A stretch of DNA of 32,000 bases from Egibacteraceae bacterium (GTDB taxonomy: Bacteria; Actinomycetota; Nitriliruptoria; Euzebyales; Egibacteraceae). The stretch covers positions 11,287-43,286 of the forward strand of contig JBOGEB010000013.1 in assembly GCA_050743125.1 (NCBI GenBank). Reading direction: 5' to 3'. Position numbers and translations under genes: made by a program. The notes below the pieces were generated by a model. That model was not told the origin of the DNA. It saw only the letters and a program-made list of their open reading frames with translations, and did not search any database. Each line of letters begins with the position of its first letter. Position 1 is the stretch's first letter. Below are positions 1 to 27,776 of this stretch, piece by piece.

Positions 1-618
1 CCGACGAGCTTGAGCTCGGCCGGTCGTGGGTCGGCCTGGCCCGCAGCCTCTACGAGGTGACGGACGTGTCGCCCGGGGAGGGTGTACGCCTTTGTGACCT
101 GCGCACCGGCGAGCCACTGGATGTGACCGAGCGGCTCGGCAGCCAGGATCTCGTCCCCGGCACGCTGCTGTACGCGCGGGTTGCGCCCGACGGGCGCAGC
201 CACCAGCTGCTCGGCGGCACCATCACGATCAAGGTCACGCTGCGCGACCGGCTGATGGCCTTTCTTGACACCAAGCCCGGTCCTGAGGAGGTCGCCGCCT
301 GGTTCGCGGCCACCAAGGCACCGCCCACCCTGGCCGCCCAGGAGGGGGAAGCGACCGTGCTCTGCGAGGCGCGTTATCTGGTGGCCGACCACGAGGAGGC
401 ACAGGCAGCGCTCGCGGAGGTGCTCGAGGTCGTCGATGACCGCTTCGTGGAGCACGTCGAGGTCGACGGCCAGACCCTCGTGCGGGGACAGGTGCGCTGG
501 GACGACCTCAGCCGAGCGCTTCGCCCGCCTCTGCGAGATCGTGACCGATGCGGTGCCGGGAGCAACGCCCCTCGCGGAGCGCTACACGCCGGCGGCACGG
601 CTGCTGGCGCCACCGTAG
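1..618 (+). pseudogene. hypothetical protein gene, 5'-partial (open to left edge), apparent frameshift near 505-512
   Basis: The frame of ORF 57..986 is open back to base 3 (DELELGRSWVGLARSLYEV...). Protein-like, high-GC3 coding runs to ...VRGQVRWDDL, then continues in the +1 frame as SAERFARLCEIVTDAVPGATPLAERYTPAARLLAPP with TAG at 616-618. The original frame becomes R/G/A-rich read-through that overlaps the next gene. Confidence 0.4.
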
Positions 619-730
619 CCTGGAAAATGGAGCCGAATGGGCACCAGCGGTTGCTCCCAGCGGCTTTGGGGTATTCGATAATCGCGATCTTTCATCGTGC
701 CCGGGGCAGCAGAAACCGGAAGGCATACGC

Positions 731-964
731 ATGTGGGTCCTCCTTTCAACCAGGCTGCGCCGCTGGCTGCTGGTCGCGGTCGGTATCCCTGCGCTTGCGT
801 GGCTGTTGGAGCGTGTCAGCGATCGGCTGGAGGCCCGCCAGGGACGCCAGACTGGAATCAGTCGCAATCTGCGGCGAGCGGGCGGGTGGCTGCATCGCAA
901 CGAGCGCCGCGGACGGTCTGCTCGCCGCCCTAACCCCAACGAGCCGGCCGGCTCAGCGAACTGA
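731..964 (+). CDS. small putative membrane protein (77 aa)
   Basis: ATG at 731 is preceded by GGAAGG (717-722). One hydrophobic helix (LLVAVGIPALAWLL) is followed by a basic tail. It is an internal start of ORF 548..964. No family recognised. Confidence 0.4.
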   Translation: MWVLLSTRLRRWLLVAVGIPALAWLLERVSDRLEARQGRQTGISRNLRRAGGWLHRNERRGRSARRPNPNEPAGSAN

Positions 965-1148
965 GCAACCGCCGATCACAAGGTGACCGCAGGCAGGTTT
1001 CAGTGTCGGGACCCGGATTGATCGTCCAAGCCAACGGTTCGGAACTCGGAAGCGGTGGGCGGCTCTCTAGGAGTTCGACGCCTGAGAAGGGTGACATGCT
1101 CCCAGCTCGTTAGCTACCGGTTGGCGCGAGCACACAGAGGTCTCTAGG

Positions 1149-1658
1149 TTGAGGCTCGTGAGCGATCGTGACCTCGTGGTGAAACCAGCCGACCGCGCGC
1201 TACAGATGGCCGAGAATCTGGTGTATGCCGGCGCTGGGGTGCTGCTCCTTGGTGGCGCTGTCATCGTCCTCGGCATCGCCGCCTATCACCTGATCGTAGA
1301 CACCGCTACGGGGAGCGGGCAGGCGGTCGAGGGCGCGCTTGAGGGGCTCCTGCTCGTGTTCATCCTGCTCGAGCTCCTGGCCGGGGTGCGGGCCACGATG
1401 ACGACACATGAGCTGGTCGCCGAGCCTTTCCTCATCGTCGGCATCATCGCCTCGATCAAAGAGATCGTGGTTGTGACGCTGCAAACAAAGAAGAGCCGGG
1501 GCGTGAACGACGCCGCTTTCACCGACGGCATGACCGAGATCGCGGTCCTGGCAGGGGTCATCCTCCTCTTGGCGCTCGCCACCTTTCTTGTGCGGAGGAA
1601 GGAGCGCGAACCGCAAGAACAGAGCCGCCGCTCAGACGAGAAGGGGAGCGACCGCTAG
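1149..1658 (+). CDS. PsiE-like (phosphate-starvation-inducible E family) integral membrane protein
   Basis: 169-aa ORF with 4 hydrophobic segments. The LLLVFILLELLAGVR ... EPFLIVGIIASIKEIVV pattern is reminiscent of the PsiE family. The listed start is TTG at 1149; an alternative ATG lies at 1206. Confidence 0.5.
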   Translation: MRLVSDRDLVVKPADRALQMAENLVYAGAGVLLLGGAVIVLGIAAYHLIVDTATGSGQAVEGALEGLLLVFILLELLAGVRATMTTHELVAEPFLIVGIIASIKEIVVVTLQTKKSRGVNDAAFTDGMTEIAVLAGVILLLALATFLVRRKEREPQEQSRRSDEKGSDR

Positions 1659-1659
1659 C

Positions 1660-1821
1660 TCAGCGGATCGCGACCAGCGCCTCGTAGAGGGAGATGAAGA
1701 CGAAGAGGGCGAGCCCGAGCCCGATCAGGTTGATCTTGCCCGCAAAGCGGGAACCGAAAGCGGCCACGATGAAGCAGATGAACGCGGCGAGCAGGAGCAG
1801 GAATACAAAGATCGGCGACAT
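1660..1821 (-). CDS. small hydrophobic protein (53 aa, two predicted TM helices)
   Basis: Internal ATG (1821..1819) of ORF 1660..2001, preceded on the minus strand by GAGGAGG with correct spacing. Sequence is MSPIFVFLLLLAAFICFIVAAFGSRFAGKINLIGLGLALFVFISLYEALVAIR. It converges on the PsiE-like gene with a 1-nt gap. Confidence 0.5.
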   Translation of the reverse strand: MSPIFVFLLLLAAFICFIVAAFGSRFAGKINLIGLGLALFVFISLYEALVAIR

Positions 1822-2107
1822 GCGAACTGCCTCCTCATTGTCCGAATGGATGCACCCATACCCATAAGAATAGGCCGCTCGGACGACGGTTTCCGCGTCG
1901 GCCCGCTGAGCGCAGGGCCAGAGGGGACATGCCTCCTCGGACAGCCGGTGCCACCTGTGCGCGGAGTGACGAGAGCGACACGACACGGAACGGGCGGGCA
2001 CGCCAGCTCGCGGTCGACGCCCTTGCGGCTATCCCGCTCCTTGTAGCATCCGGTGCCGTCACGCACGCTGCCGGCCCAGGCGATGGCGTGTGACCTAGGG
2101 AGGGGCG

Positions 2108-3490
2108 ATGGCCGAGATCGAGCGGGTCGTGGAGGCAGTCGAGACGAGCCGGCTCGAGCTGGTTCGGTTCCTGTGGGTCGACCACGGCGGTGTCATCCGT
2201 GGCAAGGCGACGTCACGCGCGCGGCTGGCTGAGCGCATGCGGGCCGGCATCGGGCTGGCGGTGGCGATGCAAGCGATGAGCGCGCTCGACGAGCTGACCC
2301 CGGTGCCCGCTCTGGGACCGGTCGGGGAGGTCCGGCTCGTACCCGACCCGGCCTCGTTCGTCGCCTTGCCGTACGCCCCGGGAGCCGGGGCGATGATCGC
2401 CGACCTGGTCTGCCTGGACGGCCAGGCGTGGGCTGCGTGCCCACGGACGTTCCTGAAACAGGCCATCGCCGACCTCGCCACCGAGGGCTTCGCGCTCGTC
2501 GCCGCGTTCGAGCCGGAGTTCACGCTGGGCCGGCGCGTGCCGGTGGACGGCGAGCCTGACCGGTTGGAGCCGATCGACGACAGCCTGTGCTTCTCGACCA
2601 CCGGCTTCGGCGCCGCCCACGACTACACGATCGAGCTGACCCGAGCGCTTGAAGCGCAAGGCCTGGACGTCGAGCAGTACTACCCCGAGCTCGGCCATGG
2701 ACAGCAGGAGCTGTCGATCCGCCACGCTCCCGCCTTGCGGGCGGCGGATCGCCAGGTCATCTACCGCGAGACCGTGCGCGGCGTCGCGTGGCGTCAGGGG
2801 CTGTGGGCGAGCCTGGCGCCCAAGCCCATCCCGGACCAGGCCGGCAACGGCGCTCACCTCCACGCGTCGCTGTGGGAGCTGGGCGCGGACGGGCAGCCCG
2901 GCGCGCGCAACGTCTTCTTCGACCCAGGAGGTCGCTACGGCCTGTCCGAGGTCGCTTACCACTTCATTGCCGGGGTGCTCGATCACCTGCCGGGGCTCGT
3001 CGCGCTGACCTGTGCCAGCGTGAACAGCTACCGGCGCCTGCAGCCGCAGTCGTGGAGCAGCGCGTTCGCGTGCTACGGGATGGACAACCGCGAGGCGGCG
3101 GTGCGCATCGCCTCGCCGCTGCGGGGGGACGAGGAGGCATCGACGAACCTGGAGCTCAAGTGCGCCGACTCGACCGGCAACCCCTACTTGGCGCTCGGCG
3201 GATTGATCTACGCCGGGCTCGACGGGATCCGCCGCCAGCTCGACCCCGGCGAGCCCACCGACGTCGACCCCGCGACGCTGCCGGAGGACGAGCGGAGCAG
3301 GCGCGGCATCCACCGGTTTCCCGGCTCGCTGAGGACCGCGCTGGACGCGCTGGTCGGCGACGAGCTGCTCATGAGTGCGCTCGGGCCCCTGCGGAGCGCC
3401 GCCTACCTGGCCGTCAAACGCTCCGAGGTGACCGCCTTCGCCGGCCACGACGCCGCCTTCGAGTGCTTCCACCACTTCACGAAGTTCTAA
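2108..3490 (+). CDS. glutamine synthetase family protein (GlnA paralog, probable gamma-glutamyl-amine ligase type)
   Basis: 460 aa with GS signatures: FLWVDHGGVIRGK, EPEFTL, YYPELGHGQQELSIRH, NGAHLHASLW, NSYRRLQP, MDNREAAVRI, NLELKCADSTGNPYLALG. SD-like GGGAGGGG lies upstream of the ATG. Confidence 0.9.
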   Translation: MAEIERVVEAVETSRLELVRFLWVDHGGVIRGKATSRARLAERMRAGIGLAVAMQAMSALDELTPVPALGPVGEVRLVPDPASFVALPYAPGAGAMIADLVCLDGQAWAACPRTFLKQAIADLATEGFALVAAFEPEFTLGRRVPVDGEPDRLEPIDDSLCFSTTGFGAAHDYTIELTRALEAQGLDVEQYYPELGHGQQELSIRHAPALRAADRQVIYRETVRGVAWRQGLWASLAPKPIPDQAGNGAHLHASLWELGADGQPGARNVFFDPGGRYGLSEVAYHFIAGVLDHLPGLVALTCASVNSYRRLQPQSWSSAFACYGMDNREAAVRIASPLRGDEEASTNLELKCADSTGNPYLALGGLIYAGLDGIRRQLDPGEPTDVDPATLPEDERSRRGIHRFPGSLRTALDALVGDELLMSALGPLRSAAYLAVKRSEVTAFAGHDAAFECFHHFTKF

Positions 3491-3492
3491 CC

Positions 3493-4623
3493 GTGCCGGT
3501 GGCGGCGGACCTCGAGGCGCTGGAGTTCGTCGACCACCACTGTCACCGCCTGCAAGGGAGCTGGACCAGCGCGAGCGGGGATCCGCCCGGCTGGCGGCGC
3601 TGCTTCACCGAGGCCACCGACGACGTGACGCTCACCCGCCACGTGCCCGCGCTGCTGGGATACCGGCGCTTCCTCCGCGCCATGGCGGAGCGGCTGGGGC
3701 TTGAGCCGGTTGGTGGGCACCTGGAGCGCCGGGTGCTCGCCCGCCGCGACGAGCTGGCGGCCGCCGACCCCGCTGGCTACCTGCGCGAGCTGCTCGACGA
3801 CGCCGGGGTGACGGCGCTGCTCGTCGACACCGGCTTCGGCGGCCCGGACACGCTGGGCGTCGAGGATTTCGCGGGGATCGCCGGCCGGCCCGTCCGCGAG
3901 GTCGTGCGGGTCGAGTCGGTCGCCGAGAAGCTGCTGGCCGCTGCCGGGCCGGCCACCCGGGGACTGGACCGTTTCGCGGACGCGCTCGAGCGCCGGCTTG
4001 TCCAGGCGCTGAACGGTGGGGCGGTCGCGTTGAAGTCGGTCGCCGCCTACCGCGCCGGCCTCGCGCTGCCCCGGCCGCGGGCAGCCGACGCGCGGCAGGC
4101 GTTCGACGACCTGGACCACGCCCGTCAGGCCCGCCGCCTCGCCGACCCGACGCTCGTCGCGTTCCTGCTGTGGCGGGCGGCCGAACTCGCCGCCGAGCGC
4201 GGTGTGCCGCTGCAGATCCACACCGGGTTCGGCGACACCGACCTCGACCTGACGCTCGCCGACCCCGCCCTGCTCCGACCGCTGCTGCGCGACCCCCGCA
4301 CGCAAGGCTGCCCGGTGGTGCTCTTGCACTGCTACCCGTTCGTACCCCAGGCCGCCTACTTGGCCAGCGTCTACCCGCAGGTGTGGATGGACTTGTCCCT
4401 GGCGATCCCACTCGCCGAGCCCCTCGCGGCCGGGCTGGTTGGTGAGGCGCTCGGCCTGTGCCCGGTCACGAAGCTGCTCGCCGGGACCGACGGCCACTCC
4501 TACCCCGAGATGCACTGGTGGGGCGCGCGCACCTGGCGCCGCGCGCTCGCCCAGATCCCGGACGCGGCCGAGGCCGCCGACCGGATCCTGGCCGCCAACG
4601 CGTGGGAGCTTTACCGGCTCTGA
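3493..4623 (+). CDS. amidohydrolase-2 family metal-dependent hydrolase, paired with the GS-like gene
   Basis: GTG at 3493 is 2 nt after the GS stop and in frame with ORF 2788..4623. Motifs: VDHHCH (HxH), LQIHTGFGD, VVLLHCYP, LLAGTDGHSYPE. A GS-paralog plus amidohydrolase pairing is known in actinobacteria, e.g. the glnA3 neighbourhood in mycobacteria (from memory). Confidence 0.8.
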   Translation: MPVAADLEALEFVDHHCHRLQGSWTSASGDPPGWRRCFTEATDDVTLTRHVPALLGYRRFLRAMAERLGLEPVGGHLERRVLARRDELAAADPAGYLRELLDDAGVTALLVDTGFGGPDTLGVEDFAGIAGRPVREVVRVESVAEKLLAAAGPATRGLDRFADALERRLVQALNGGAVALKSVAAYRAGLALPRPRAADARQAFDDLDHARQARRLADPTLVAFLLWRAAELAAERGVPLQIHTGFGDTDLDLTLADPALLRPLLRDPRTQGCPVVLLHCYPFVPQAAYLASVYPQVWMDLSLAIPLAEPLAAGLVGEALGLCPVTKLLAGTDGHSYPEMHWWGARTWRRALAQIPDAAEAADRILAANAWELYRL

Positions 4624-4733
4624 CGGGGGATCCCGAACGCGGTGCTGCGGGATCCACTTGAACCGCACGCTCCCGTGGTCCGTCCACGCACTTTCGGTGT
4701 GAACAACGCGCGTAGGCCGCGCAGTCGGTCTTC

Positions 4734-5777
4734 TCAGATACGGCGACCGCTCTGGTGACGGCCGCCGTACCGCGGGCCTCGGAGGCGGATGCCGTTCGCC
4801 CGGCGCGCGCGCATAAAAACGGCCCCGCCGATACCCGCCAGGGTGAGTATGAGGCCGGGCAGCCAAGGGTTGAACAGGCCCGGCGAGCCGGTGGGCTCCG
4901 TTGCGACGATCGGTGACCGCGCCTCCGGCAGGGGCTCGATCAGGTCCACGGTGGCTGGACCTGATCCGACGGCACCGCTGGCGTGCCCACCCCCTGGCGG
5001 GTCCGGCGGTGCAGACGGGACTGGCGCCCCCGGAGCCTGAGTAGTGGGTCGGGGCGCCGACGGACCTATGGATCTCGGCTTCGCCGCGGGCGCCGCAGGA
5101 GCGATCAACGGAGGCGGCGGTTCTTGTGGCGGCATGGGGATGGGCTTTTCGGTGACGACGTCGGAGTGGTTCGGGCGCGGGCGCGGCCTGGGGTGCGCGT
5201 TCCGTTCCGGACGCGGGTGCAGTCTCGGGCGCGAGTCCGGTTCTGGTCGCGGATGCGGTTTCGGGGCGCGTTCCGATCTCGGGTGCGGGCGCGGGTGCGA
5301 ATCCGGTTCCGGTTGCGGGTTCGGGCGCGAGTCCCGTTCCGGGCGCAAGCCCGGGTCCGGGTCCGGGCGCAAGTTCCGCTCCGGGCGCGATTCCGGTCTC
5401 GGATCTGGGCTCGGGCTCGGGTCCGGAACCAAGCGCGGGCCCGGGTTTGCGTCTGGAACCGGGTGCGGACGCGATCTCGGGCGCGAGTCCTGTTCCTGCT
5501 CCGGGCGCGGACTTGAGTCCGGGCTCGGGTCTGGGCTCGGGTCTGGGCTCGGGTCTGGACTTGAGTCCGGTTCCAGGCTCGGGTCCGAGCGCGAATTCGG
5601 CCTCGGGTCCAGCCAGCAGTACCAGTGGATCGGGTTCGGGCACGACACCTGGTGCTGGATCCCCAGCTCGCCCGCTGTCACGGCAGTCGGCAGGCCGACC
5701 GAGCCGAGCGCCGCCAAGCCCAAGCCGATCCCGACCGCCGCCTTGGAGGGACCGCCCTTGCAACGGAACACCATCAT
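4734..5777 (-). CDS. secreted, C-terminally membrane-anchored proline-rich repetitive protein
   Basis: Start MMVFRCKGG (ATG at 5777) is preceded by GGAAGG. Signal-peptide-like AAVGIGLGLAALGSVGLPTAVTA. About 200 aa of P/D/S/R/E repeats (PDPSPDPSPDPSP, PRPEPDS...). C-terminal TM LPGLILTLAGIGGAVF is followed by RARR. All six frames are open here, so the frame choice rests on the signal and anchor logic. Confidence 0.55.
   Translation of the reverse strand: MMVFRCKGGPSKAAVGIGLGLAALGSVGLPTAVTAGELGIQHQVSCPNPIHWYCWLDPRPNSRSDPSLEPDSSPDPSPDPSPDPSPDSSPRPEQEQDSRPRSRPHPVPDANPGPRLVPDPSPSPDPRPESRPERNLRPDPDPGLRPERDSRPNPQPEPDSHPRPHPRSERAPKPHPRPEPDSRPRLHPRPERNAHPRPRPRPNHSDVVTEKPIPMPPQEPPPPLIAPAAPAAKPRSIGPSAPRPTTQAPGAPVPSAPPDPPGGGHASGAVGSGPATVDLIEPLPEARSPIVATEPTGSPGLFNPWLPGLILTLAGIGGAVFMRARRANGIRLRGPRYGGRHQSGRRI
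5509..5570. repeat. short tandem repeat inside the Pro-rich gene (12-bp unit GGGCTCGGGTCT x3, flanked by GGACTTGAGTCCGG x2)
   Basis: Direct reading of 5509-5570. It encodes the PDPS repeats on the minus strand. Confidence 0.7.
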
Positions 5778-6881
5778 CCTGACCTTCCTGCCATCCGCCA
5801 GTGACTGCTGGTCCGTTTCTCGACCGCCCGATCGCAATCGGGGGCGTCCCCCCGCCCTCACGTTACGACGTTTCCCACAAAATTTCCCGTTGGGCAGGGT
5901 ACGGCTGACCCCGCCGACCCGGTCCACGTCGAGGGGTGCCAAGCGTCTGCCGGCCCAGCGGTCCGCATCGGCCGAGGCAGGGAAGAACTCAACTCGGTAG
6001 GCAGCCGGCAGCGGCTCGCCAGGCGTTCAGCGTGCCGCTCGGCCCGCTGAGACCGGGCAGTGTGGGCTCGGAGGCGGTGATCGCGACGAACCGCCGCATT
6101 GGCTGCAGGGGCTCGGGCTGCTGCCCGCCACGCTTGCGCTGCCCCGCCAGCCCGCCGTTGACTTCCACGAGCAGACCATCACGCTGGTCACACGGTACGC
6201 GACGACCGCCCGGCGGAGCAGTTGGCCGACGCCCGCGCCCACCTCAACGTCCTGGGAGCCGCGCTGCGTGGGCCGAGACAGTTCGGGCAGCGCCGCGGCC
6301 TGCAGGTCGATGCGGCGGAGACCGCTTGCCTGGCCGCCTGCTCGGCCCGCTCCTGCGGATGTCTGGGCGAGACCACCGCGTTCTTCTCGCTCGCGCGGAG
6401 CCTCGCCGATCAGTCGCAGGTGGCGGGGGTGCGCGGCTGCGCGCTGGCGGTCTACTCGGTGCTGCATGCCCGATCATCGGGGACAACGACCCGTTGGCTG
6501 GGCTTCATCGCGAGCACCAGACCCGCAGCGCGCCTTCGCGCTGCCCGACGACGATGGTGATGAGGGGTTCCTCTCCAGCCGTCGGTTCCTCGTCAGCCTC
6601 GCCACGATGGGCGAGGCACAGCTTGACGCCTGGGTGAGCCGTGGCCTCATCCTGCTCGGCATGCGGTGGCAGGCCACGATCCGGAGCCGGCCTGTGTCCA
6701 GGCGCACCACGCGCTCGAGGTGGTGGCGCTGACCCGAGTCCACCACGCCCGCAACGAGATGCGCGGGCAACTGGACCGACACGTCCTGAGTCCGGGAGCT
6801 CACAAGCGCCACGCCTCGTCACCTGAGCCGGCGCGGTGCGGTTCGTCCGCCGGTCTCGGTAGGGAGCTGGAGAATGAAAGA

Positions 6882-7562
6882 ATGAGAGGAATCACTCAGG
6901 CGTTCGGTGCGCGGTTCGACCTCGACGATCTGCTGATCGTGGGCATCGCGTTGACCCTTGCGCTCACCGGCATCTCGTCACTGTTGAGCCCGCTGGGCAA
7001 CATCGCCGTCTCGGCGGTGGTCGTGCTCGCGTGGCTTGCGCTAGCCCGCAGACGCGCGCGGAGACGCCGCGGCCACTGGCGCGAGGCGGACTTCCAGAGC
7101 CCTCGTCGGGGTATCCTCTTCACAGTCGGGCTGGGTGGGGTCAAGGACGGGACCATCGCGGACCTCGTCGTCGATCGCCTGCGTCCCGAGTTCGTCGGCT
7201 TCCTGCTCACAGGCGAGGTCGAGAACCTCGAGCAGATCGAGGAGTTCAAGCGCCGGAAGGGTGTGGTCGTTCACTGCGAGCGGATCGACCCGGGTGACTT
7301 CGAGGGCTGCCGCCGGGCGACGGCCAGGGCACTCGAGTGGCTGCTCGACCAGGAGCTGGAGCGCGACGACCTCGTCGTCGACCTCACCGGGGGCTTGAAG
7401 AACGTCAGCCTCGCGGCCTTCCTCGCCGCCGAGGACTACCAAGTCGAGACGCAATACATTCAGTCCGACTACACCCAAGCCGCCAAACTCGTGCCGGGGA
7501 CACAGCAGCAGGTGCTGCTCACGACGTATCGCGGTGCGCCCGCCTCCACAGCCGCCGGCTGA
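6882..7562 (+). CDS. membrane-anchored CARF-domain protein (2 TM helices + CARF; Cam1-like putative cyclic-oligoadenylate-responsive effector)
   Basis: ATG at 6882 sits in a locally AT-rich initiation region with GGAG 9 nt upstream. TM1 is LLIVGIALTLALTGISSLL and TM2 is IAVSAVVVLAWLALA, followed by RRRARRRR. The Rossmann-like domain has GILFTVGLGG after strand 1 and DLTGGLK, which matches the CARF signature [DN]x[ST]xxx[RK]. It lies directly upstream of the type III cas genes. Confidence 0.6.
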   Translation: MRGITQAFGARFDLDDLLIVGIALTLALTGISSLLSPLGNIAVSAVVVLAWLALARRRARRRRGHWREADFQSPRRGILFTVGLGGVKDGTIADLVVDRLRPEFVGFLLTGEVENLEQIEEFKRRKGVVVHCERIDPGDFEGCRRATARALEWLLDQELERDDLVVDLTGGLKNVSLAAFLAAEDYQVETQYIQSDYTQAAKLVPGTQQQVLLTTYRGAPASTAAG

Positions 7563-7629
7563 CCCCAGACTCGACTCCACGCAGTTCGGCTCAGCTCCGT
7601 GGCGACCACGCCACTTGGATCCGTGCCTG

Positions 7630-7884
7630 CTACAGGTGTTGACTGTCCCCCTCGGGCGCGCGTCTCGACCCACGCTCCTCGATGAGTTCCCGCTGGACAC
7701 GCACCAGCGCTGAGTCCAGCTGGGGCAGGTGTTCGTCGACCGTATTGGCGATAATGTCAGGGTCCCGATCCCAGTACTCGTGGACCACCACGTTGCGAAA
7801 TCCCACAATCCTCCGCCACGGGATCTCTGGAGCGCGGCGGATGACGTCCTCCGAAAGGTGCTTGGCTGCCTCACCAATGCCTGT
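7630..7884 (-). pseudogene. HepT (DUF86/HEPN) toxin gene fragment, 5'-truncated, no start codon
   Basis: Manual minus-strand translation gives TGIGEAAKHLSEDVIRRAPEIPWRRIVGFRNVVVHEYWDRDPDIIANTVDEHLPQLDSALVRVQRELIEERG...QHL*. It contains the HEPN Rx4H motif (RNVVVH) and the IGEAAK box typical of HepT. The frame is closed upstream by TGA (7887..7885). The N-terminal ~45-50 aa and the cognate MNT gene are absent. It is missing from the ORF track. Confidence 0.65.
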
Positions 7885-7893
7885 TCAAGCATT

Positions 7894-9003
7894 CCCGGCG
7901 GCGTCCTCGCGATCGACGGCGACGAGGCTGATCGCCTCGCCGAGCGCCTGAAGGGCCTGCTCGCCGGCACGGTCCTGTTGGGCCGGTCCCGCCGGGCCGG
8001 GTACGGCGGGGACCCGGCGATCGAGTGGGACGCGCTGGGCGACCGCGAGGTCGAGGGGCCACAGGTGGTCCCGCTCGACCGGGATCTCCAGGCGGGCGGG
8101 ACCGTCCGGCTGCTGCTCACCTCGCCGTACCTCGGCCGTCATGCCGACACCGGTCAGCCCGACCCCACCTACCTGACGACCGAGATCGAGCGGCGCCTCG
8201 GCGCGGTCACCGTCGTGCGGCGGCGCTGGGCGTTCACCGAGGCCGGCGGCTACAACCGCGCTTGGGGGCTGCCGCTGCCCCAGCGCGCCGCCCTGGCCGC
8301 CGGATCAGTGCTGCTCCTGCGGGCGGACCACACCGTGCCTGCGGAACCGCTGCAGGACGTCGAGCACAGCGGGCTCGGCGACCGGCGGGTCGACGGCTTC
8401 GGCCGCTGCGTCTTCCTCCAGGCGCCGACCAAGACCGTCACCCTGCACGCCACCCCGAAGGCTCCACCGGCGCCGGCGCCCAACGGCCAGAGCCCGCCGA
8501 CGCTCGTGCGCACGATCGAGCGGCGGATCGCCGAGGCGCGGGTCCGTGACGAGATCGAAGACGTCGCCGCCACGATCGCCCACAGCGCGACAGGGATCCC
8601 GACGTCCAGCCTGATCGGGCGGCTGCGTGTGCCGTTGCGCGGCGACCCAGCGGCCGGGCTCGCCGAGCTCGCCGTATGGGTGGGGTCCAACGACACGACC
8701 GCGCGGCTGCGCCGACCGGCGCTCGACCAGCTCCACCGCTGCCGGCTGACAGAGCCCGACGAGGGGCCGACGACGACCCTTCTCACGTGGCTGCGAGACC
8801 TCTCCCACGACGGCGGGAAGCGACTCAACCGCCTCCTCCGGCTCGACGTCGTCGCCCACAACGCGGCGATCGGAGCAGAGGCCGCGCTCCGCGCAGACGT
8901 GGGGAAGAGCGCCACCGCGCACCGGGCGCTCCTGGTCGATGCGGTCCTGGCCGCGCTCCGCCTCCGGCTGAAGACCACGAGCCAGGAGGGCGTCGATGAC
9001 TGA
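7894..9003 (+). pseudogene. Cas5(Csx10)-Cas11 fusion-like type III subunit, N-terminally truncated
   Basis: The C-terminal ~370 aa of ORF 7729..9003 carries two RAMP glycine-rich loops (LLGRSRRAGYGG; GLGDRRVDGFGRCVF) plus GGYNRAWGLPLP, then a ~170-aa helical Cas11-like tail. The first G-loop lies ~30 aa from the junction, so most of the first RRM is missing. The ORF's first ~55 codons (7729-7893) are antisense to the HepT fragment and are not genuine coding. Confidence 0.6.
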
Positions 9004-10420
9004 CCTCGCCGACACCGGCGGTGCCCGCCGCCTCCGGGCACGTTGGGTGCTCGCCGCTGACCTCGTCCTCCGCACCGCCGCGCACCTCGGCGGGCAGGAC
9101 GAGGGAGCGGCCGACCTCAACGTGATCCGTGACCGGGTGGGCGGCGGGCCGCTCCTGCCAGGGACGTCGCTCGCGGGAGCGCTCCGCGGCCACCTGTGCG
9201 ACCGGCTGGGTGGGTACGCCAGCGCGGAGGCTGACCCGCGTATCGCGACGCTGTTCGGCGCCCGCCGCGCGGAGGACGGCGGCTCGCAGAGCCCGCTGGT
9301 CGTGTTCGACAGCCTCGGCCGCCTGCCTGCGGCTGGCACAGAGATCCGTGACGGGGTGAGCATCGACCACGGCACCGGCACCGCCGCCGAGAACAAGAAG
9401 TTCGACCTCGAGATCCTGCCCGCGGGAACGCGGTTCCCCGCCAGGATCGAGCTGCTGATCGACAACGGCGTCGATGAGCACGAGCTGGTCTCGCTGCTGC
9501 TCGCGGCCCTGCAGGGTCTGGCCGGCGGGGAGATCGCGCTCGGCGCGCGCCGCTCACGGGGACTCGGGCGCGTGGAGACCCGCGTATGGCGGGCCCACCG
9601 ATACGACCTCTCCTCGGCGGACGGGTGGCTGGCCTGGCTGTGCGCCGACCCCGCCGCGCCGATCCCCGACGACGTCGCCGGGCACGAGGATCCCGCTTCA
9701 GCGTGCGACACGGCGTGGCCGGCCCTGCGGCGGAGATCGACGCCGGACCAGCGCGAGCGCGTCACGGTCGTCGCGCGGCTGGAGGTGCAGGGCGCCGTCT
9801 TGGTCCGCAGCCCGGCGGACTCGGCCGACGCACCGGACGTCGCGCACCTCCGCTCGGGCGGCGTGGGTGTCCTGCCCGGCACGAGCCTTGCCGGCGTCCT
9901 GCGGGCTCGGGCGCTGCGGATCCTCGATCTCCTCGGCGCTGACGGACGCCGCGACGGGCTCGTCGACGGGCTGTTCGGGTGGACGCCCCAGGGTCGGGCC
10001 GAGCCGGGAGGCCGGTCGTCGCGCCTGCGGATCGCCGAGAGCGTGATCGACGGCGGCGACCCCGTCCGCCAGACCCGCATCCGCGTCGACCGCGCGACGC
10101 AGGGCGTTGCGCGAGGCGCGCTGTTCGAGGAGGAGCCGCACGCCGGCGGCGAGCTGGACGTGCGCATGGAGCTCCGGAGCCCGAGAGACGGCGAGACCGG
10201 TCTGGTCCTGCTGCTGCTCAAGGATCTCCTCACCGGCGACCTCCCGGTCGGGGGGAGCGCGGCGGTCGGTCGTGGCGTCGTACGCGGGTCGGCGGTCGTG
10301 ACGTTCCCGGACGGCAGCACCGCCCGCCTGGAGCCCCCCGAGGCCGAGCAGCGCGCTCGGCTCGACGCGGAGATCCGCATGCTCGCGGCGGTGGCCGCGC
10401 GACAGGAGGCTGCCCGGTGA
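8996..10420 (+). CDS. cas7: double Cas7 (Csm3/Cmr4-like x2) RAMP backbone subunit
   Basis: 474 aa with two repeats of the Cas7 signature (ADLNVIRDRVGGGPLLPGTSLAGALRGHL; DAPDVAHLRSGGVGVLPGTSLAGVLRARA) and G-rich loops (GARRSRGLGRV; GGSAAVGRGVV). Candidate catalytic Asp residues are retained in both halves. The ATG overlaps the upstream stop by 8 nt. Confidence 0.8.
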   Translation: MTDLADTGGARRLRARWVLAADLVLRTAAHLGGQDEGAADLNVIRDRVGGGPLLPGTSLAGALRGHLCDRLGGYASAEADPRIATLFGARRAEDGGSQSPLVVFDSLGRLPAAGTEIRDGVSIDHGTGTAAENKKFDLEILPAGTRFPARIELLIDNGVDEHELVSLLLAALQGLAGGEIALGARRSRGLGRVETRVWRAHRYDLSSADGWLAWLCADPAAPIPDDVAGHEDPASACDTAWPALRRRSTPDQRERVTVVARLEVQGAVLVRSPADSADAPDVAHLRSGGVGVLPGTSLAGVLRARALRILDLLGADGRRDGLVDGLFGWTPQGRAEPGGRSSRLRIAESVIDGGDPVRQTRIRVDRATQGVARGALFEEEPHAGGELDVRMELRSPRDGETGLVLLLLKDLLTGDLPVGGSAAVGRGVVRGSAVVTFPDGSTARLEPPEAEQRARLDAEIRMLAAVAARQEAAR

Positions 10421-11013
10421 TCACGCTCGAGCGCTGCACTCTGAGCCCGCTGTCACCCGAAGACTGCGGACAGCTTCTCGACTGGGTGCTCGGCGAGGGT
10501 CCGCCGCCGGACGATGCCGGCAATCCCCGCTGGCTGCTCGCCCACTGCGACGACGGGGTCGTCTGGGGCCACCGCCGGACGCCGGACGGCTCGTGGGCGC
10601 TGTCGTCGGCTGCGTTCCCGGCCGTCTCGCCGCCGCTGCGGGCCGGCACGCTCCAAGAGCTGCGCGTGTTCGGCTTCGACGAGGAGCGGCTGGTCTGGCG
10701 GGCCGACGGCGGGCTCGCCGGTCGCCGGCTCCGGGACGCGCCCAACGGGCGAGGCGAGGGGACCGAGCACGTGGAGGACGTCCGCATCGTCCGTGGCGAG
10801 CACGTCCCGGAGGAGCCCCGAAGCGGTTTCACGCTGGTCACCGACAGCGCCGGCTCACGGCACGCTGTGCCAACGGCGTGCGCAGAGGCGGAATTCAAGA
10901 ACGGTCAGCGGGTGCGGCTGGTGCTGCGCCACTACCTGGAGCAGGACTCGAAGACCGGGGCGGTGCGCATCGCCGCCACCCGTCTCGTCGACCTCGAGCT
11001 GGAGCGTGGATGA
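10417..11013 (+). CDS. csx19: Csx19-like (TIGR03984-type) small type III-D subunit
   Basis: GTG at 10417 overlaps the upstream TGA (GTGA), with AGGAGG 7 nt upstream. 198 aa. Its position between the double Cas7 and the large Cas7-insertion gene matches the III-D variant gene order. Family assignment is by recall plus synteny, not by alignment. Confidence 0.55.
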   Translation: MITLERCTLSPLSPEDCGQLLDWVLGEGPPPDDAGNPRWLLAHCDDGVVWGHRRTPDGSWALSSAAFPAVSPPLRAGTLQELRVFGFDEERLVWRADGGLAGRRLRDAPNGRGEGTEHVEDVRIVRGEHVPEEPRSGFTLVTDSAGSRHAVPTACAEAEFKNGQRVRLVLRHYLEQDSKTGAVRIAATRLVDLELERG

Positions 11014-11014
11014 C

Positions 11015-13216
11015 ATGGAGCACCTCCCCCACCACGTCAACCCGCCCGACGGCCGCACGGCGACGGCGCCGTACAACTTCGTGCCGCTCCCCCAGCAGGT
11101 GCTGCTCGCCGAGAGGGTGGTGACCGGCGAGCCGTGGAAGGCGCACGACCGCTGGCTGCCCGGCACCCACAGCGGGTGGATCGACCTCCAGATCGAGACG
11201 CTGACCCCGCTGTTCGTCCGCGGACCGGTCCTGCGCCAGGAAGGCGGGTGGGACAAGCGCGAGGCCCGCCTGCGCCCCGAGCCGTGGACGACGGCCGACG
11301 GCCGGCCGGCCATCCCCGGCTCGAGCCTGCGCGGGATGCTCCGCACCCTCGTCGAGATCCTCGCGTTCGCAACGATCACCCCGGTCAGCGACGCCAAGCC
11401 GTTCTTCCGCACGGTGTCCGCCGACCGGCTCGGCATCGCCTACCGCAACCGGGTCCTCCAGAACGGCAAGAGCAAGCCGGAGGGCGGGTTCCTCCGGCGC
11501 CGAGGAGAGGGTTGGGTAGTGGAGCCCGCAATGGTCCTGCGCGTGCCCCACCGCAAGCATGCCCAGGGCTTCGGTTACCGCCAGCACCCGAGCTACCACC
11601 CCGACTGGGCGCTCCAGCACCAGCAGTGCTGGGTGCAGCGCGACGGCGAGCGGGTGACAGCGATCGAGATCGGCGCGAAGAGGCCGAAGGGCGACGGTTG
11701 GGCCGAGGGCACGCTCGTGCTGACCGGCAGCGCGCCCAACAAGGAGGCCGAGTTCGTGTTCCTCGCGAACCGCGCCGCCAAGCCCGCCGAGGTCCCGGAC
11801 GAGGTCTGGGAGCGGTTCCACGACGACGACCAGATCAGCCAATGGCAGGAGAAGGGCTTCCCAGAGCACGAACCGGCAGGTGGCCGGCGCCGGGCCGCCG
11901 GCCACCTGCGCGACGGCGAGCCGGTGTTCTTCCTGCGGGAGAGCGCTGACCAAGTGCGGTTCCTCGGCCGCGCGCAGATGTTCCGGTTCCCGTACGACCG
12001 CAGCATGGCCGACCTCGTTCCCCCGGCGCTGCGCGGTGCCGAACTCGACGTCGCGGAGGCCGTGTTCGGCCGGGTGCGCAAGGACCGGAACGACCCGCTC
12101 CCGACCGTGAAGGGGCGCGTGTTCGTCGAGGACGCGGTCGGGGTCAGCCATCGGAGGGGGTGGTTCGAGCCTGATCTGGTCCCGCAGATCCTCTCGTCTC
12201 CCAAGCCGACGACGTTCCCTCACTACCTGACACAGGACGGCCGTCAGCCCAAGGAGGCGCTCACGACCTACCTCGCGGGCGACGAGACCACGATCCGCGG
12301 CCACAAGCTCTACTGGCACCGCTGGGGCGAGGACGAGCTGGCCGACGTCTGTGACCGGTCCCAGAGCCCCCGCAGCAGCCAGCACACGGTCATCCGACCG
12401 GTGCGGGCCGGGGTCACGTTCGAGGGACGGGTCCGCTTCGAGAACTTGAGCGACGTCGAGCTGGGCGCGCTCCTCGCGGCGCTGAGGCTCCCGTCCGGCT
12501 GCGCGCACAAGCTCGGCATGGCCAAGCCGCTCGGCCTGGGCAGCGTCAGGATCACCCCCGCGCTCCACCTCGTCGACCGCGCCGCGCGCTACCGCTCGTG
12601 GAGCGACACGGGGCAACGGCCTGACCAGGACGCGGCAGTAGAGGCGCATTGTGTGGACGCATTCGTGGCCGCAGTGCTCGCGCACGCCGGCACGAGCCAG
12701 GAGGCGACGCTGGAGGAGCAAGAGGGCCTCCGGAGGGTTGCCCGGCTCGACGCGCTCTTCACGATGCTGTCCTGGGAGGAACACCCGCCGCGGGAGGCGA
12801 CCGCGTACATGCCCCTGGCCGGCTTCAAGGACCGGAAGGTCCTCCCGACCCCGCACCGCGTAAGCGACCCCAAGCGGGACGAGCCGGACTGGCCCGGGCC
12901 CGCGCCGACGGCGGCGCCCGAGGAGCCCGACCCCGACCGTCCGCCGGCCGCTGCGACTGCCGTCGGCAGCGTCGTTCAGGGAACCGCGCTGGAGGCCAAG
13001 ACGAACAAGGGCGGCTGGGTGTTCGCCTTGCCCGACGGCCAGGAGGGCATCTTCGCCCCGGGCTGCCCTCAACCGTCTGATCTCGCGCCAGGGCGCCAGT
13101 ACAACTTTGTGCGGAAGACCGATCCACCGCGCAGCGAGCGGGCACAGCTGTGGTGGGTCGATCCCGACGCTCCTCCACCAGCGCCAAGGGCCCGGCCCGA
13201 CCGCCGTCGGCGCTAG
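11015..13216 (+). CDS. cas7: large RAMP protein, Cas7 with insertion (TIGR03986-like), with extra C-terminal domain
   Basis: 733 aa. Motifs: APYNFVPLP, GWIDLQIETLTPLFVRGP, RPAIPGSSLRGMLRTLVEILAF, LYWHRWG, and C-terminal G-loop KLGMAKPLGLGSVRIT. A large insertion separates the motifs. The ATG is 2 nt after the upstream stop. Confidence 0.8.
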   Translation: MEHLPHHVNPPDGRTATAPYNFVPLPQQVLLAERVVTGEPWKAHDRWLPGTHSGWIDLQIETLTPLFVRGPVLRQEGGWDKREARLRPEPWTTADGRPAIPGSSLRGMLRTLVEILAFATITPVSDAKPFFRTVSADRLGIAYRNRVLQNGKSKPEGGFLRRRGEGWVVEPAMVLRVPHRKHAQGFGYRQHPSYHPDWALQHQQCWVQRDGERVTAIEIGAKRPKGDGWAEGTLVLTGSAPNKEAEFVFLANRAAKPAEVPDEVWERFHDDDQISQWQEKGFPEHEPAGGRRRAAGHLRDGEPVFFLRESADQVRFLGRAQMFRFPYDRSMADLVPPALRGAELDVAEAVFGRVRKDRNDPLPTVKGRVFVEDAVGVSHRRGWFEPDLVPQILSSPKPTTFPHYLTQDGRQPKEALTTYLAGDETTIRGHKLYWHRWGEDELADVCDRSQSPRSSQHTVIRPVRAGVTFEGRVRFENLSDVELGALLAALRLPSGCAHKLGMAKPLGLGSVRITPALHLVDRAARYRSWSDTGQRPDQDAAVEAHCVDAFVAAVLAHAGTSQEATLEEQEGLRRVARLDALFTMLSWEEHPPREATAYMPLAGFKDRKVLPTPHRVSDPKRDEPDWPGPAPTAAPEEPDPDRPPAAATAVGSVVQGTALEAKTNKGGWVFALPDGQEGIFAPGCPQPSDLAPGRQYNFVRKTDPPRSERAQLWWVDPDAPPPAPRARPDRRRR

Positions 13217-13223
13217 AAGCCCG

Positions 13224-13628
13224 ATGCGTACCGCCAGGTCGCCGCTGGTCTGCAACTTCTCGCACCCGCTGACCCATGCGCACGTCGAGCAGTTGGAGGC
13301 GTTGCTCGGCGTCCCGGTGGACGCGGTGATCGAGCGACCGACCGTCTTCGACCCTGGGACGCCGTTCGCCGAGCAGGCCAGGCGGCTGGTCGACGCCGTC
13401 GGGCTGAGCGTGGCCGAGTGGCAGACCCGCCCGATCGTCGTGCACCTGCCGGGACACAGCGTGATCGCCGCCCTGGTCCTGGCCGAGCTGCACGGGCGCA
13501 CCGGTGGGTTCCCTGCGGTGCTGCGGCTCCGGCGTCTGGAGCCGCTCAACGAGTTCACCGTCGCGGAGCTGATCGACCTGCAGGCCGTGCGCGAGGCCGG
13601 CAGGGGAACCCGCATGGAGAGGAGGTGA
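13224..13628 (+). CDS. small CRISPR-associated accessory protein (possibly Csx15-like; uncertain)
   Basis: 134 aa, MRTARSPLVCNFSHPLTHAHVEQLEALLG... It is packed tightly between the effector genes and cas6 (8 nt after the upstream stop, 3 nt before the cas6 ATG). Alpha/beta-like pattern. The family name is from weak recall only. Confidence 0.4.
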   Translation: MRTARSPLVCNFSHPLTHAHVEQLEALLGVPVDAVIERPTVFDPGTPFAEQARRLVDAVGLSVAEWQTRPIVVHLPGHSVIAALVLAELHGRTGGFPAVLRLRRLEPLNEFTVAELIDLQAVREAGRGTRMERR

Positions 13629-13631
13629 GCG

Positions 13632-14390
13632 ATGCCGGTCGCCTACACGCTCCTGCTCCGAACCGGAGCCGCGGCGCCGGAGCCGACGCATGAGGATCTG
13701 CACCGGCTCGCGTGCCGGCTGGTGGAGCCGCCGGGCAACCCGGCGCATCAGGATCAGCGCAAGCCGTTCACGCTGTGGCCGCTGCAGGTGGCGCCGGAGC
13801 GGGGAGACGAGTGCCAGCTGCGGCTGAACTGGCTGCCGGTCGACGACGGCCTCGGCAGCCACCTGCGGCTGGCGCTGGGCCGGCGGCTGTGGCTGGGGAC
13901 CGCGGAGGTCGTCCCGCTCGACGTCGACCGACAGGGCACGAGCTACCAGACACTGCGTGACCTCCCACCGCTGTGGCAAGCCGACCTGCGGTTCCTCTCC
14001 CCCACCTATTTCTCGCGCAGCGGGAGGGACTACCTGCTGCCCGACCCGGCGCTGATCGTGCGCAGCCTCGTCGTCCGCTGGAACGAGCAGGTCGAGGAGC
14101 GCCCCGCGCTGGCGATCGACGGGGACGTGGCGCGCGAGCTCGGCCGGCGGGTGATCCTCAAGGCCCACGAGCTGTACACCGTGCGGGTGACGGGCGCGGA
14201 CGGACGGCCGCGGACCGGGTTCAAGGGGCAGGCGCGGCTGGGTCTGCGGACCGCCGAGCGACGCTCGGCCGAGGGCGTCGCCTGCGCGCGGCTGCTCGCC
14301 ACGCTGTGCGCCTTCGTGCCCTACTGCGGGTTGGGGGCGCAGACGACGCACGGCCTCGGCGCCGTCGCGGTCTACTCGGCGGATGGGTGA
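13632..14390 (+). CDS. cas6: Cas6 CRISPR RNA endoribonuclease
   Basis: 252 aa. Strong SD (GGAGAGGAGG). C-terminal Cas6 glycine-rich signature YCGLGAQTTHGLGAV. Double-RRM size, and position immediately upstream of the adaptation genes. Confidence 0.8.
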   Translation: MPVAYTLLLRTGAAAPEPTHEDLHRLACRLVEPPGNPAHQDQRKPFTLWPLQVAPERGDECQLRLNWLPVDDGLGSHLRLALGRRLWLGTAEVVPLDVDRQGTSYQTLRDLPPLWQADLRFLSPTYFSRSGRDYLLPDPALIVRSLVVRWNEQVEERPALAIDGDVARELGRRVILKAHELYTVRVTGADGRPRTGFKGQARLGLRTAERRSAEGVACARLLATLCAFVPYCGLGAQTTHGLGAVAVYSADG

Positions 14391-16254: not shown

Positions 16255-16529
16255 TCTACCTCGTCGCCTACGACATCGCCGACGACCGCCGCCGCGAGGA
16301 GATCGCCGCCATCCTCTCCACCTACGGCGCCCGGGTGCAGCTGAGCGTCTTCGAGTGCGAGCTGGCCGACCCCGCCACCGTGGCAACGGTCACGGGCTTG
16401 CTCACCCGCACGATCGAGCCCGCCGAGGACCAGATCCGCCTGTACCCCCTGCCCGCCGGCTCCGTCCGCGGAACCGAGATCATCGGCAACCGCCGCCTCG
16501 AGGAGCGCGCCGACTTCTGGATCGTATGA
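16251..16529 (+). CDS. cas2: Cas2
   Basis: The GTG start overlaps the RT-Cas1 stop (GTGA). 92 aa: VIYLVAYDIADDRRREEIAAILSTYGARVQLSVFECEL...IRLYPL, typical Cas2. Confidence 0.85.
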   Translation: MIYLVAYDIADDRRREEIAAILSTYGARVQLSVFECELADPATVATVTGLLTRTIEPAEDQIRLYPLPAGSVRGTEIIGNRRLEERADFWIV

Positions 16530-16758
16530 CGGCCCCCGGGTCCCTGCGGCTGTCGGATTCACCCCCTTTCGACCGACCGTTGCAGCCCCTCACGCCACGA
16601 CGCCAAACCGGCCCGGTGCGCGCTACGCCATTTCCGCTGGTCAGCGCCCTGCCCGCCCCACACCCGTCCTTCCCTCGGCCCCTCTCCACCCCCCGCCCGC
16701 CCCGGTCCGCGCAACGCCGCGTATACTCCCAGGTCAGCGGCCCCTTTCTGCGGGAAGG

Positions 16759-16869
16759 GTTCCCCCTTAACGCCCGGTGCTCAGGGCATAGAAACGCCGC
16801 CTTCAACATGTGGAGTTGAGGAAAGCGATACCGTTCCGCCTTAGGCCTCGATGTTTCATGTGATTATGC
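16759..16869 (+). CRISPR. vestigial CRISPR array: one 37-nt repeat, one 37-nt spacer, one degenerate terminal repeat
   Basis: R1 (16759-16795) is GTTCCCCCTTAACGCCCGGTGCTCAGGGCATAGAAAC, with a GCCC/GGGC hairpin followed by an 8-nt ATAGAAAC tail. R2 starts exactly 74 nt later (16833) as GTTCCGCCTTAGGCCTCGATGTTTCAT...; 10 of the first 11 nt are identical, then it degenerates. The spacer (16796-16832) is ~54% GC versus ~70% locally. The array begins 230 nt downstream of cas2 on the same strand. There are only two copies, so this is tentative. Confidence 0.4.
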
Positions 16870-16919
16870 GGGGCGGGTCTGAGGGGCCTGTGGGGCTGTC
16901 GATGAGAGCGCAGGAGACG

Positions 16920-16942
16920 AAAAAACCGGCCGTGGCCGGGTT
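16920..16942 (-). terminator. weak intrinsic-terminator-like hairpin with T6 tail (minus strand)
   Basis: The minus strand reads AACCCGGCCACGGCCGGTTTTTT. A T6 run is rare at this GC content. It lies ~110 nt downstream of the transposase-fragment stop. The stem is short (4-6 bp). Confidence 0.3.
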
Positions 16943-17054
16943 GAGGCAGCAGTCGACGGATGTTCGGATGGTGTTGGGGCAGGCTGAGGCAGCGGCAGGG
17001 CCGCTGGCAGATGTTGTGAGAGGATTGTCGGACGGCGAGGGGAGATCAGGCCCG

Positions 17055-27727: not shown

Positions 27728-27776
27728 GTTGTCCACAGACTCCGCTTTGACGTCCAAAACCCGCATTCCACGCGAG

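Follow-up and report, generated by a model that had tools for sequence, protein, structure and literature searches.

A Cam1-family membrane effector gene probably orphaned by a deletion in a degrading type III-D CRISPR locus of an Egibacteraceae bacterium

We analysed a stretch of 32,000 nucleotides from an Egibacteraceae bacterium (assembly GCA_050743125.1, contig JBOGEB010000013.1, positions 11,287 to 43,286), referred to here as the window, in which a gene for a predicted membrane protein with a CARF domain stands at the head of a type III-D CRISPR locus. On the strength of its sequence and predicted fold, the gene is assigned to the Cam1 family (CARF8 CARF_TM) of type III CRISPR ancillary effectors as a genuine and new member, and we call it cam1-like. 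The locus has no cas10, the gene for the synthase of cyclic oligoadenylates (cOA). It was lost by a deletion of about 4.5 kb, and the locus is an ordinary decaying defence locus, not a new kind of system. In our view the best explanation, with a probability of about 0.6, is that a Cam1-family effector was orphaned in a degrading III-D locus by the deletion that we mapped. The original prediction, made from the sequence alone, had proposed a Cam1-like membrane effector that could be orphaned, served in trans or responsive to another ligand.

The cam1-like open reading frame (ORF) runs from an ATG at 6882 to a TGA at 7560-7562 (226 codons), and its codon-position GC contents of 0.70, 0.44 and 0.85 are typical of coding sequence for a window with 71% GC. 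An 86%-identical orthologue (P0002) is carried by a 58-kb contig of the Egibacteraceae metagenome-assembled genome (MAG) GCA_050743665.1 (L001/L011). The ratio of non-synonymous to synonymous substitution rates (dN/dS) between the two genes is 0.22, indicating that cam1-like is under purifying selection. A longer ORF of 298 residues, starting at GTG 6666, was rejected, since all six full-length close homologues, which came from a collection of 5.8 billion proteins, have 226-227 residues, and since a 1-nt indel and stop codons interrupt the frame upstream in L001. A promoter and terminator scan of positions 5700-8000 returned nothing, such a scan being uninformative at this GC content. The non-coding segment upstream of the gene (6560-6881) is about 94-95% identical to L001, as against 89% for the cam1 coding sequence, and may harbour a small ORF or some conserved regulatory element; a 53-residue ORF is called there in L001.

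Searches by sequence, profile and fold agreed that the soluble domain is a CARF domain and that its nearest relative is Cam1, as had been predicted. In a phmmer search of all PDB chains, Cam1 (8t64) was matched with an E-value of 5.1e-9 over residues 67-203 of the 226-residue protein (139-275 of the 298-residue query), in an alignment that takes in VDLTGG...SLAAFLAAE; the next matches were to the ring nuclease Sso2081, at E ~0.3. When the AlphaFold2 model was compared with the PDB by Foldseek, ranks 1-8 were all occupied by Cam1 (8t64-8t66; E 3e-8 to 7e-6, probability 1.00, target-normalised TM-score 0.64-0.71) and the lower ranks by the CARF proteins Cad1, Csm6 and Can2, with no assignment to a non-CARF Rossmann family. 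The PADLOC-DB profiles CARF8--CARF_TM (PDLC01946; E 8.1e-19, profile positions 18-188 of 202) and "CARF, 2 TMs" (PDLC01168; E 6.6e-15, positions 24-189 of 200) were matched as well. Among the NCBIfam models, TIGR02710 (384 positions) reached 46.1 bits, below its cut-off of 83.9 and over positions 6-119 only, and Crn1 reached 15.7 bits, far under its cut-off of 125 bits. A Pfam search gave no significant match, so that it took the searches of PDB, NCBIfam and PADLOC to identify the protein.

When 1.84 billion representative proteins were searched with a profile, 254 clusters came back, mostly of 200-250 residues with a transmembrane (TM) region and a CARF domain. Some of these are 40-50% identical to the CARF fragment of Cam1 from Nitrosococcus halophilus (NhCam1; PDB 8t64/8t65/8t66; Baca et al. 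2024, PMC10808066) and have one hydrophobic segment after an LDQ motif. A word-indexed search with a 43-sequence profile gave 9 proteins, and a close-alignment profile search of genome and metagenome contig collections found no relatives. The window protein has the architecture of the Cam1 family, with a helical N-terminal TM region, a C-terminal CARF domain, a length of 226 residues (about 200-230 in the family) and no enzymatic domain. At least 40 hydrophobic N-terminal residues were counted in 86 of the 124 full-length family representatives, a length that indicates two helices, as predicted for the window protein; in metagenomes, proteins of this two-TM branch appear to be the majority of the Cam1-like family. 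We know of no two-TM member with a canonical CARF domain that has been characterised experimentally. The architecture itself is not new, as it has already been catalogued bioinformatically (PADLOC "CARF, 2 TMs").

The two N-terminal helices of the original prediction were borne out by hydropathy and by the AlphaFold2 model, in which helices at residues 14-32 and 37-61 are followed by alternating strands and helices; the sequence SPLGN lies between the two hydrophobic stretches. The poly-Arg stop-transfer segment and the motifs GILFTVGLGG (residues 77-86) and DLTGGLK (residues 167-173, fitting the CARF consensus D-x-T-x-x-x-K) were all present as quoted there. The proposed membership of the CARF8/Cam1 family stood, with a refinement for the membrane region: the characterised Cam1 proteins have one TM helix and the window protein has two. 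The model was built on an 8-sequence alignment and has a mean predicted local distance difference test (pLDDT) score of 63.9, with values of 75-92 in the core of the CARF domain. In a family alignment of 121 representative sequences, R58 is the most frequent residue at its column (78/121). With regard to D17, the acidic residue that lines the pore in NhCam1, the window protein has D15 and D16 capping its first helix; 45 of the 121 representatives are acidic at the D16 column, in a TM region where the alignment of one-TM with two-TM proteins is unreliable.

Every strongly conserved position of this alignment is retained in the window protein. D167 is invariant (121/121), the column of T169 has T in 115 sequences and S in 6, G171 and Y192 are kept in 114 and 113 sequences, T or S occupies the T110 column in 114, S176 is kept in 100, and position 197 is aromatic in 106. 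In NhCam1, cyclic tetra-adenylate (cA4) is contacted by S75, N76, T97, K160, Y180, T183 and F185 (Baca et al. 2024, PMC10808066). The HMMER alignment places T97, Y180, T183 and F185 at T110, Y192, S195 and Y197 of the window protein, positions that are conserved across the family, suggesting a cA4 pocket that is largely but not fully conserved. The motif R(X3)QQ(X10)L of the effector Cap1 is absent from the protein, its sole QQ being at Q208-Q210 with V204/P205 at the -4 position.

The prediction that the adjoining type III locus lacks cas10 within the window was confirmed in three ways. Annotation of the large ORFs with Pfam, NCBIfam and PADLOC found no cas10 in the 32 kb, tblastn of the L001 Cas10 against the window gave nothing, and a hidden Markov model (HMM) built from 120 short Cas10 proteins gave nothing at E <= 10 in the six-frame translation. 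The complete III-D gene set is not present: Cas10 is absent and Csx10 is short, with two Cas7 genes and Csx19 in place. No CRISPR array was detected in the window by Tandem Repeats Finder and two direct-repeat scans, including the region after cas2, and the tandem repeats of the window are confined to the gene of a proline-rich protein (5168-5609). A search of the whole window with Rfam at gathering thresholds gave nothing.

Comparison with L001 located the missing genes. By blastn, window 5984-7552 corresponds to L001 128-1707 (91%) and window 7896-12927 to L001 6183-11226 (84%), with nothing in common between the two blocks. The interval found only in L001 (1708-6182) has 4,475 bp, and the window has 343 bp in its place. 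The interval encodes a 369-residue CARF-PD-D/ExK nuclease of the Can2/Card1 type (PADLOC CARF4--CARF_PDDEXK, E 2e-40; Pfam Card1_endonuc; best PADLOC match to a 'Csx1' signalling model, E 1.6e-53), a 544-residue HD-less Cas10 (PADLOC Cas10d, E 1e-93; Pfam Palm2 over cut-off; motif LLGGDDLTF), a 211-residue Cas7_IIId (PADLOC, E 7e-56) and the first 194 codons of a 559-residue Csx10. In the window, residues 57-423 of the 424-residue ORF at 7729-9003 match Csx10 195-558 at 92% identity (BLASTP). The PADLOC Cas5_IIId profile is covered from 178 to 455 of its 499 positions in the window and from 3 to 493 in L001, a loss of about 177 N-terminal positions, and the nominal start of the window ORF falls in antisense hepT sequence. 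The hepT fragment comprises the C-terminal two-thirds of the gene and is cut near 7896, the point from which csx10 again aligns; beside it no mntA partner can be seen. This arrangement suggests that a toxin-antitoxin cassette was inserted beside cam1 before the deletion took everything as far as csx10 codon 194. A 99.5%-identical MAG contig (L005) shows the same scar, as does an independent contig of 3 kb (L010), assembled from a sequencing run.

A further, more distantly related locus (L007), whose Cas10 is 58% identical, has the order card1-like, cas10, a 212-residue Cas7, a 559-residue Csx10, Cas7, Csx19 and large Cas7. Since L007 and L001 share the full gene order, we take this order as ancestral and the window as its deletion derivative. 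The occurrence of a cOA sensor without a synthase is thus explained by the mapped deletion and not by a new signalling arrangement. Of the options left by the original prediction, the orphaned state gained direct support, as the syntenic relative reveals the deletion of cas10, the Card1-like nuclease, the small Cas7 and the 5' end of csx10. Together with the window, L001 and L007 offer a natural series for following how a III-D locus decays and which of its parts survive.

The relatives also showed features of their own. Between window positions 1-17562 and L005 there are 89 differences, clustered at 500-1000, 5500-7400 (7 within 40 nt of cam1) and 8551-8595, with 100% identity over 9000-17562, a pattern suggestive of patches of recombination or of mixed strains in the MAGs. 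Apparent frameshifts occur in L001/L011 at about 4870-4950 (with the C-terminal Cas10 motif RTPLLDAVELLD in another frame), at 11989-12750 (cas6 interrupted) and at 12863-14545 (RT-cas1 in three frames). They are either independent decay or errors of MAG assembly; a single-run assembly (L002) is identical over the site of the cas10 frameshift. In samples ERZ27251177 and SRR7811987 (L003/L004), a 67%-identical cam1-like gene lies about 8 kb from a short csx10 of 292 residues, and the spacer of about 8 kb holds an unrelated F420/PPOX-like gene, a ribbon-helix-helix gene, a DUF222-HNH gene and an IS110 element. Other contigs of the same samples (L007-L009) carry a complete card1-cas10-csx10-cas7-csx19 module with a lipase-like gene in the place of cam1. 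In L003, the downstream csx10 and Cas7 share only about 32% identity with their counterparts in L001 and L007; L003 may represent an independent loss of cas10.

Table 1. Features of the cam1-like gene and of the remaining type III-D locus in the window
Feature	Start	End	Strand	Evidence and remarks
Shine-Dalgarno-like sequence GGGAGCTGGAG	6862	6872	+	Read off the sequence; its GGAG ends 9 nt ahead of ATG 6882
cam1-like gene, 226 residues, two predicted TM helices followed by a CARF domain	6882	7562	+	ORF, homologues, phmmer/Foldseek/PADLOC
Predicted TM helix 1, residues 17-35, LLIVGIALTLALTGISSLL, with D13/D15/D16 ahead of it	6930	6986	+	Kyte-Doolittle mean 2.32; AlphaFold2 helix 14-32
Predicted TM helix 2, residues 38-55, LGNIAVSAVVVLAWLALA	6993	7046	+	Kyte-Doolittle mean 2.22; AlphaFold2 helix 37-61
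RRRARRRR positive-inside segment, residues 56-63	7047	7070	+	Net charge +7 over residues 56-75
CARF domain, residues ~75-218, with D167-x-T169-G-G, T110, Y192, S195 and Y197	7104	7535	+	phmmer, AlphaFold2, Foldseek, family alignment
343-bp filler at the deletion scar	7553	7895		blastn: no similarity to L001 1708-6182 or elsewhere in L001
5'-truncated hepT (DUF86 HEPN toxin) fragment, abutting truncated csx10	7630	7884	-	PF01934 E 9.9e-18, profile positions 37-118 of 120
csx10 (Cas5 III-D) remnant	7896	9003	+	BLASTP to residues 195-558 of the 559-residue orthologue
Cas7 (III-D, Csx7-like), 474 residues, intact	8996	10420	+	PF03787 E 6.5e-36; PADLOC Cas7_IIId E 4e-111
Csx19, 198 residues	10417	11013	+	TIGR03984 E 7e-26, over cut-off
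Large multi-domain Cas7 (III-D) of the TIGR03986 family, 733 residues	11015	13216	+	TIGR03986 E 2e-117, over cut-off; PADLOC Cas7_IIId E 1e-142
Csx15, cA4-specific ring nuclease or sponge family	13224	13628	+	NF040560 E 4.5e-39, over cut-off; function from PMC13148439
Cas6	13632	14390	+	PF10040 E 3.9e-16
RT-Cas1 fusion	14569	16254	+	PF01867 E 3.5e-86; PF00078 E 1.2e-24
Cas2	16245	16529	+	PF09827 E 1.6e-17
ORF whose similarity is confined to the C-terminus of a DDE transposase, at the expected place of the array	17055	17624	-	PF13701 E 7e-13, profile positions 343-434 of 435

Within the remaining locus (Table 1), the large TIGR03986 Cas7 (window 11015-13216, L001 9290-11578) is about 60% identical at the protein level and the flanking cas genes are 85-92% identical, so the locus is a mosaic. 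A 97-bp stretch just past cas2 (16563-16658, + strand) is 83.5% identical to the inverted sequence L001 1981-2075 (- strand), which lies there between cam1 and the card1-like gene. The stretch had no Rfam match and no further copies, and could be a leader remnant or the trace of a rearrangement. On the other side of cam1-like, the - strand at 4734-5777 encodes a 343-residue protein with an N-terminal signal-like segment, long proline-rich repeats of the PxPxP type (PDPSPDPSPD, PRPHPR) and a C-terminal hydrophobic anchor, for which no Pfam match was found. A DUF222 protein (18308-19777, + strand), whose relative in L003 also has an HNH domain, lies near the cas genes, and an AbiEi-antitoxin-like regulator (27699-28739, + strand) lies further along; both are additional mobile-element or defence-related neighbours.

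The gene content of the locus points to the signal to which the protein would respond. Csx15 belongs to a family of cA4-specific ring nucleases or sponges (PMC13148439), and both the Can2/Card1-type nucleases and Cam1 are activated by cA4 (PMC11229360; PMC10808066). HD domains are rare in Cas10 of type III-D, which is thought to act mainly via cOA (PMC11229360). Since Csx15, a Card1-type nuclease and a Cam1-family protein occurred together, the ancestral operon would have been a III-D system signalling through cA4, in which a regulator accompanied two effectors. The retention of the cA4-specific Csx15 and the former presence of the Can2/Card1-type nuclease disfavour the earlier suggestion of another ligand. 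Cam1 homologues are usually located in type III loci together with other CARF effectors (PMC10808066), and a distant two-TM member of the family (P0061, in L006) adjoins a complete III-B locus (Cmr2) and Csx3, which shows the normal habitat of the family.

From these elements we propose the following course of events. The ancestral locus would have comprised, in this order, cam1-like, a card1/can2-like nuclease, a short HD-less GGDD Cas10, a small Cas7, Csx10, Cas7, Csx19, the large Cas7, Csx15, Cas6, RT-Cas1 and Cas2. The lost 4,475 bp would have extended from just past the stop codon of cam1 as far as csx10 codon 194 and would have carried away the cOA synthase, one Cas7, the Cas5 core and the second of the two cA4 effectors; the array is also absent. 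A membrane hairpin of the two N-terminal helices is probable, with both of its ends in the cytoplasm (N-in/C-in), and the poly-Arg segment would keep the C-terminal CARF domain at the cytoplasmic face of the membrane. By analogy with Cam1, CARF dimers in a pre-assembled oligomer may bind cA4, and binding would open or rearrange the TM bundle, leading to membrane depolarisation and halting the infected cell's growth. Such a mechanism has been shown for Cam1 (PMC10808066) and, structurally, for the two-TM Cap1 (bioRxiv 10.1101/2025.11.13.688252). The intact orphan would at present stay silent unless cA4 arrives from elsewhere, and it could persist without cost, because a ligand-activated effector stays off without cA4.

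Several points weigh against the orphan explanation. The cam1-like gene is intact, with all of its conserved residues, in every allele seen, and continued use predicts the same. S75 and N76 of NhCam1 are replaced by G83 and L84, and K160 by L172, with K173 next to it; because these contacts are not conserved, the ligand preference is unproven. The AlphaFold2 model is moderately confident, with pLDDT values of about 40-57 in the TM region. The direction of the deletion is deduced by parsimony from two full-length loci, and the statement that there is no cyclase applies to this locus only, as seen through the 32-kb window.

One alternative accepts the protein and the deletion as described and supposes that the effector is still serving, with another cOA source in the genome activating it in trans. 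In that case selection would maintain cam1-like and Csx15 through the decay of the local effector complex. We regard this as a minor but real possibility. It agrees with the finding of an intact gene with conserved residues in the window, L005, P0278, L001 and L003, and with the long-term dN/dS of cam1-like, which at 0.22 is the lowest in the locus (0.36 for the csx10 remnant, 0.46 for Cas7 and 0.49 for Csx19, all compared with L001). The lesions of the neighbouring cas genes differ by lineage while cam1 stays whole, with cas10 deleted in the window and a 3' frameshift in cas10 and broken cas6 and RT-cas1 in L001/L011. The two samples ERZ27251177 and SRR7811987 contain the 67%-identical cam1-like gene apart from cas10 and, on another contig, a complete card1-cas10-csx10 module without cam1, but the sharing of a sample does not assign these contigs to a single organism. 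Although cOA can diffuse and effectors are known to operate with Cas10 complexes of heterologous origin (PMC10808066), the window contains no second cyclase, and a search with the L001 Cas10 found no homologue of more than 58% identity besides the L001 protein itself. Between the cam1 genes of the window and L005 there are 7 non-synonymous and 4 synonymous differences; the resulting omega of about 0.6 among post-deletion alleles fits relaxed selection, the count being too small for significance and for separating relaxed from maintained selection. A stronger form of this idea, which we consider doubtful, is that selection has kept cam1-like after the loss of cas10 as a free-standing alarm receiver for cA4 made elsewhere, outliving the complexes and moving independently of them. 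Three related lineages, in which an intact cam1-like gene lies beside differently broken III-D loci or away from cas10, are suggestive of this. If the orphan is indeed used in trans, cOA effectors can be modular receivers that are independent of the adjacent complex.

The other explanations are far less probable. Some CARF proteins are sensor and ring nuclease at once, and the weak, sub-threshold matches to Crn1 (15.7 bits), Sso2081 (E ~0.3) and TIGR02710 (46 bits) would suit a protein that is not a toxic effector and instead damps the cA4 signal, as a CARF ring nuclease or sponge anchored in the membrane. However, the Crn1 and TIGR02710 scores are far under the respective cut-offs (125 and 83.9 bits), Cam1 or CARF8 CARF_TM is the best match by sequence, profile and structure by many orders of magnitude, a dedicated regulator, Csx15, is already present in the locus, and the conserved two-helix membrane domain would be left unexplained, all of which makes a damping role improbable. 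A Panoptes-type guard, held off by a constitutive cyclic nucleotide and firing when a phage sponge depletes it, has a precedent in the CARF-TM effectors with inverted logic of type II Panoptes (PMC13577387). The window protein has its TM region at the N-terminus, no mCpol or Cas10-palm gene adjoins cam1-like, L001 has no adjacent mCpol either, and the relatives stand in canonical type III-D or III-B loci. Moreover, an apo-active effector would be toxic once its cyclase was lost, yet the gene persists intact, and we give such a guard hardly any credence. The same holds for a functional, naturally Cas10-less type III variant in which the TM-CARF protein senses a different signal. Type III subtypes of this kind exist (III-E; PMC12669027), most of the remaining cas genes are intact ORFs, and the large Cas7 is similar to the gRAMP of III-E. 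Against this, Csx10 is without its N-terminal 194 residues and nominally starts in antisense hepT, one Cas7 is gone, a CRISPR array is absent, the limits of the gap are exactly those of a block conserved in two relatives, and Csx15 and the Cam1-type pocket point to cA4.

Among known systems, type III-D systems with a short HD-less Cas10, whose signature is Csx10, Csx19 and TIGR03986, are the frame of reference for the locus, which shares with them Cas5_IIId, two Cas7_IIId, Csx19, Cas6 and RT-Cas1-Cas2. Compared with the complete III-D loci L001 and L007, cas10, the Card1-like effector, one of the Cas7 genes and the CRISPR array are missing from the window, and Csx10 is short of its N-terminal third. 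In III-E, full-length subunits are fused and Cas10 is missing (PMC12669027), whereas Csx10 of the window locus is truncated. The CARF-TM proteins of type II Panoptes have the CARF domain (to about residue 207) before the TM region and are encoded next to mCpol (PMC13577387); the window protein has the opposite domain order.

NhCam1 (206 residues) and the window protein (226 residues) are built alike, with a TM region at the N-terminus, then a basic linker, then a canonical CARF domain at the C-terminus. The two CARF domains match with an E-value of 5e-9 and about 28-30% identity, NhCam1 is the best structural match, D-x-T-G-G is common to both, and four cA4-contact positions of NhCam1 have counterparts in the window protein, which differs at three of the seven ligand contacts. 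In NhCam1 and its close clade there is a single TM helix, with an LDQ motif (carrying the pore-lining D17) and an RRWLxRNRFP linker, whereas the window protein has two predicted helices and a poly-Arg linker; the topology of the two-TM branch must differ from that of NhCam1. The two-helix layout would imply an N-in/C-in arrangement and, by analogy, eight helices per tetramer as against four in NhCam1. Both NhCam1 and the family of the window protein occur in type III loci with other CARF effectors. The cas10 gene that normally accompanies Cam1 is missing from the window and present in L001 (GGDD Cas10d) and beside the distant family member in L006 (Cmr2).

The families CARF8 CARF_TM and 'CARF, 2 TMs', from the CARF superfamily classification in PADLOC-DB v2, have the same layout of two TM helices and a CARF domain as the window protein and are known from bioinformatics only. 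Cap1 from Parafilimonas terrae (bioRxiv 10.1101/2025.11.13.688252) differs in its non-canonical CARF-like domain, in the use of four such domains per cA4 through R(X3)QQ(X10)L and in an additional DUF4579, and gives no sequence match to the window protein. It likewise has two TM helices followed by a cytoplasmic cA4-binding domain and is a tetramer whose pore is opened by cA4, which makes it a useful mechanistic model for a two-TM effector.

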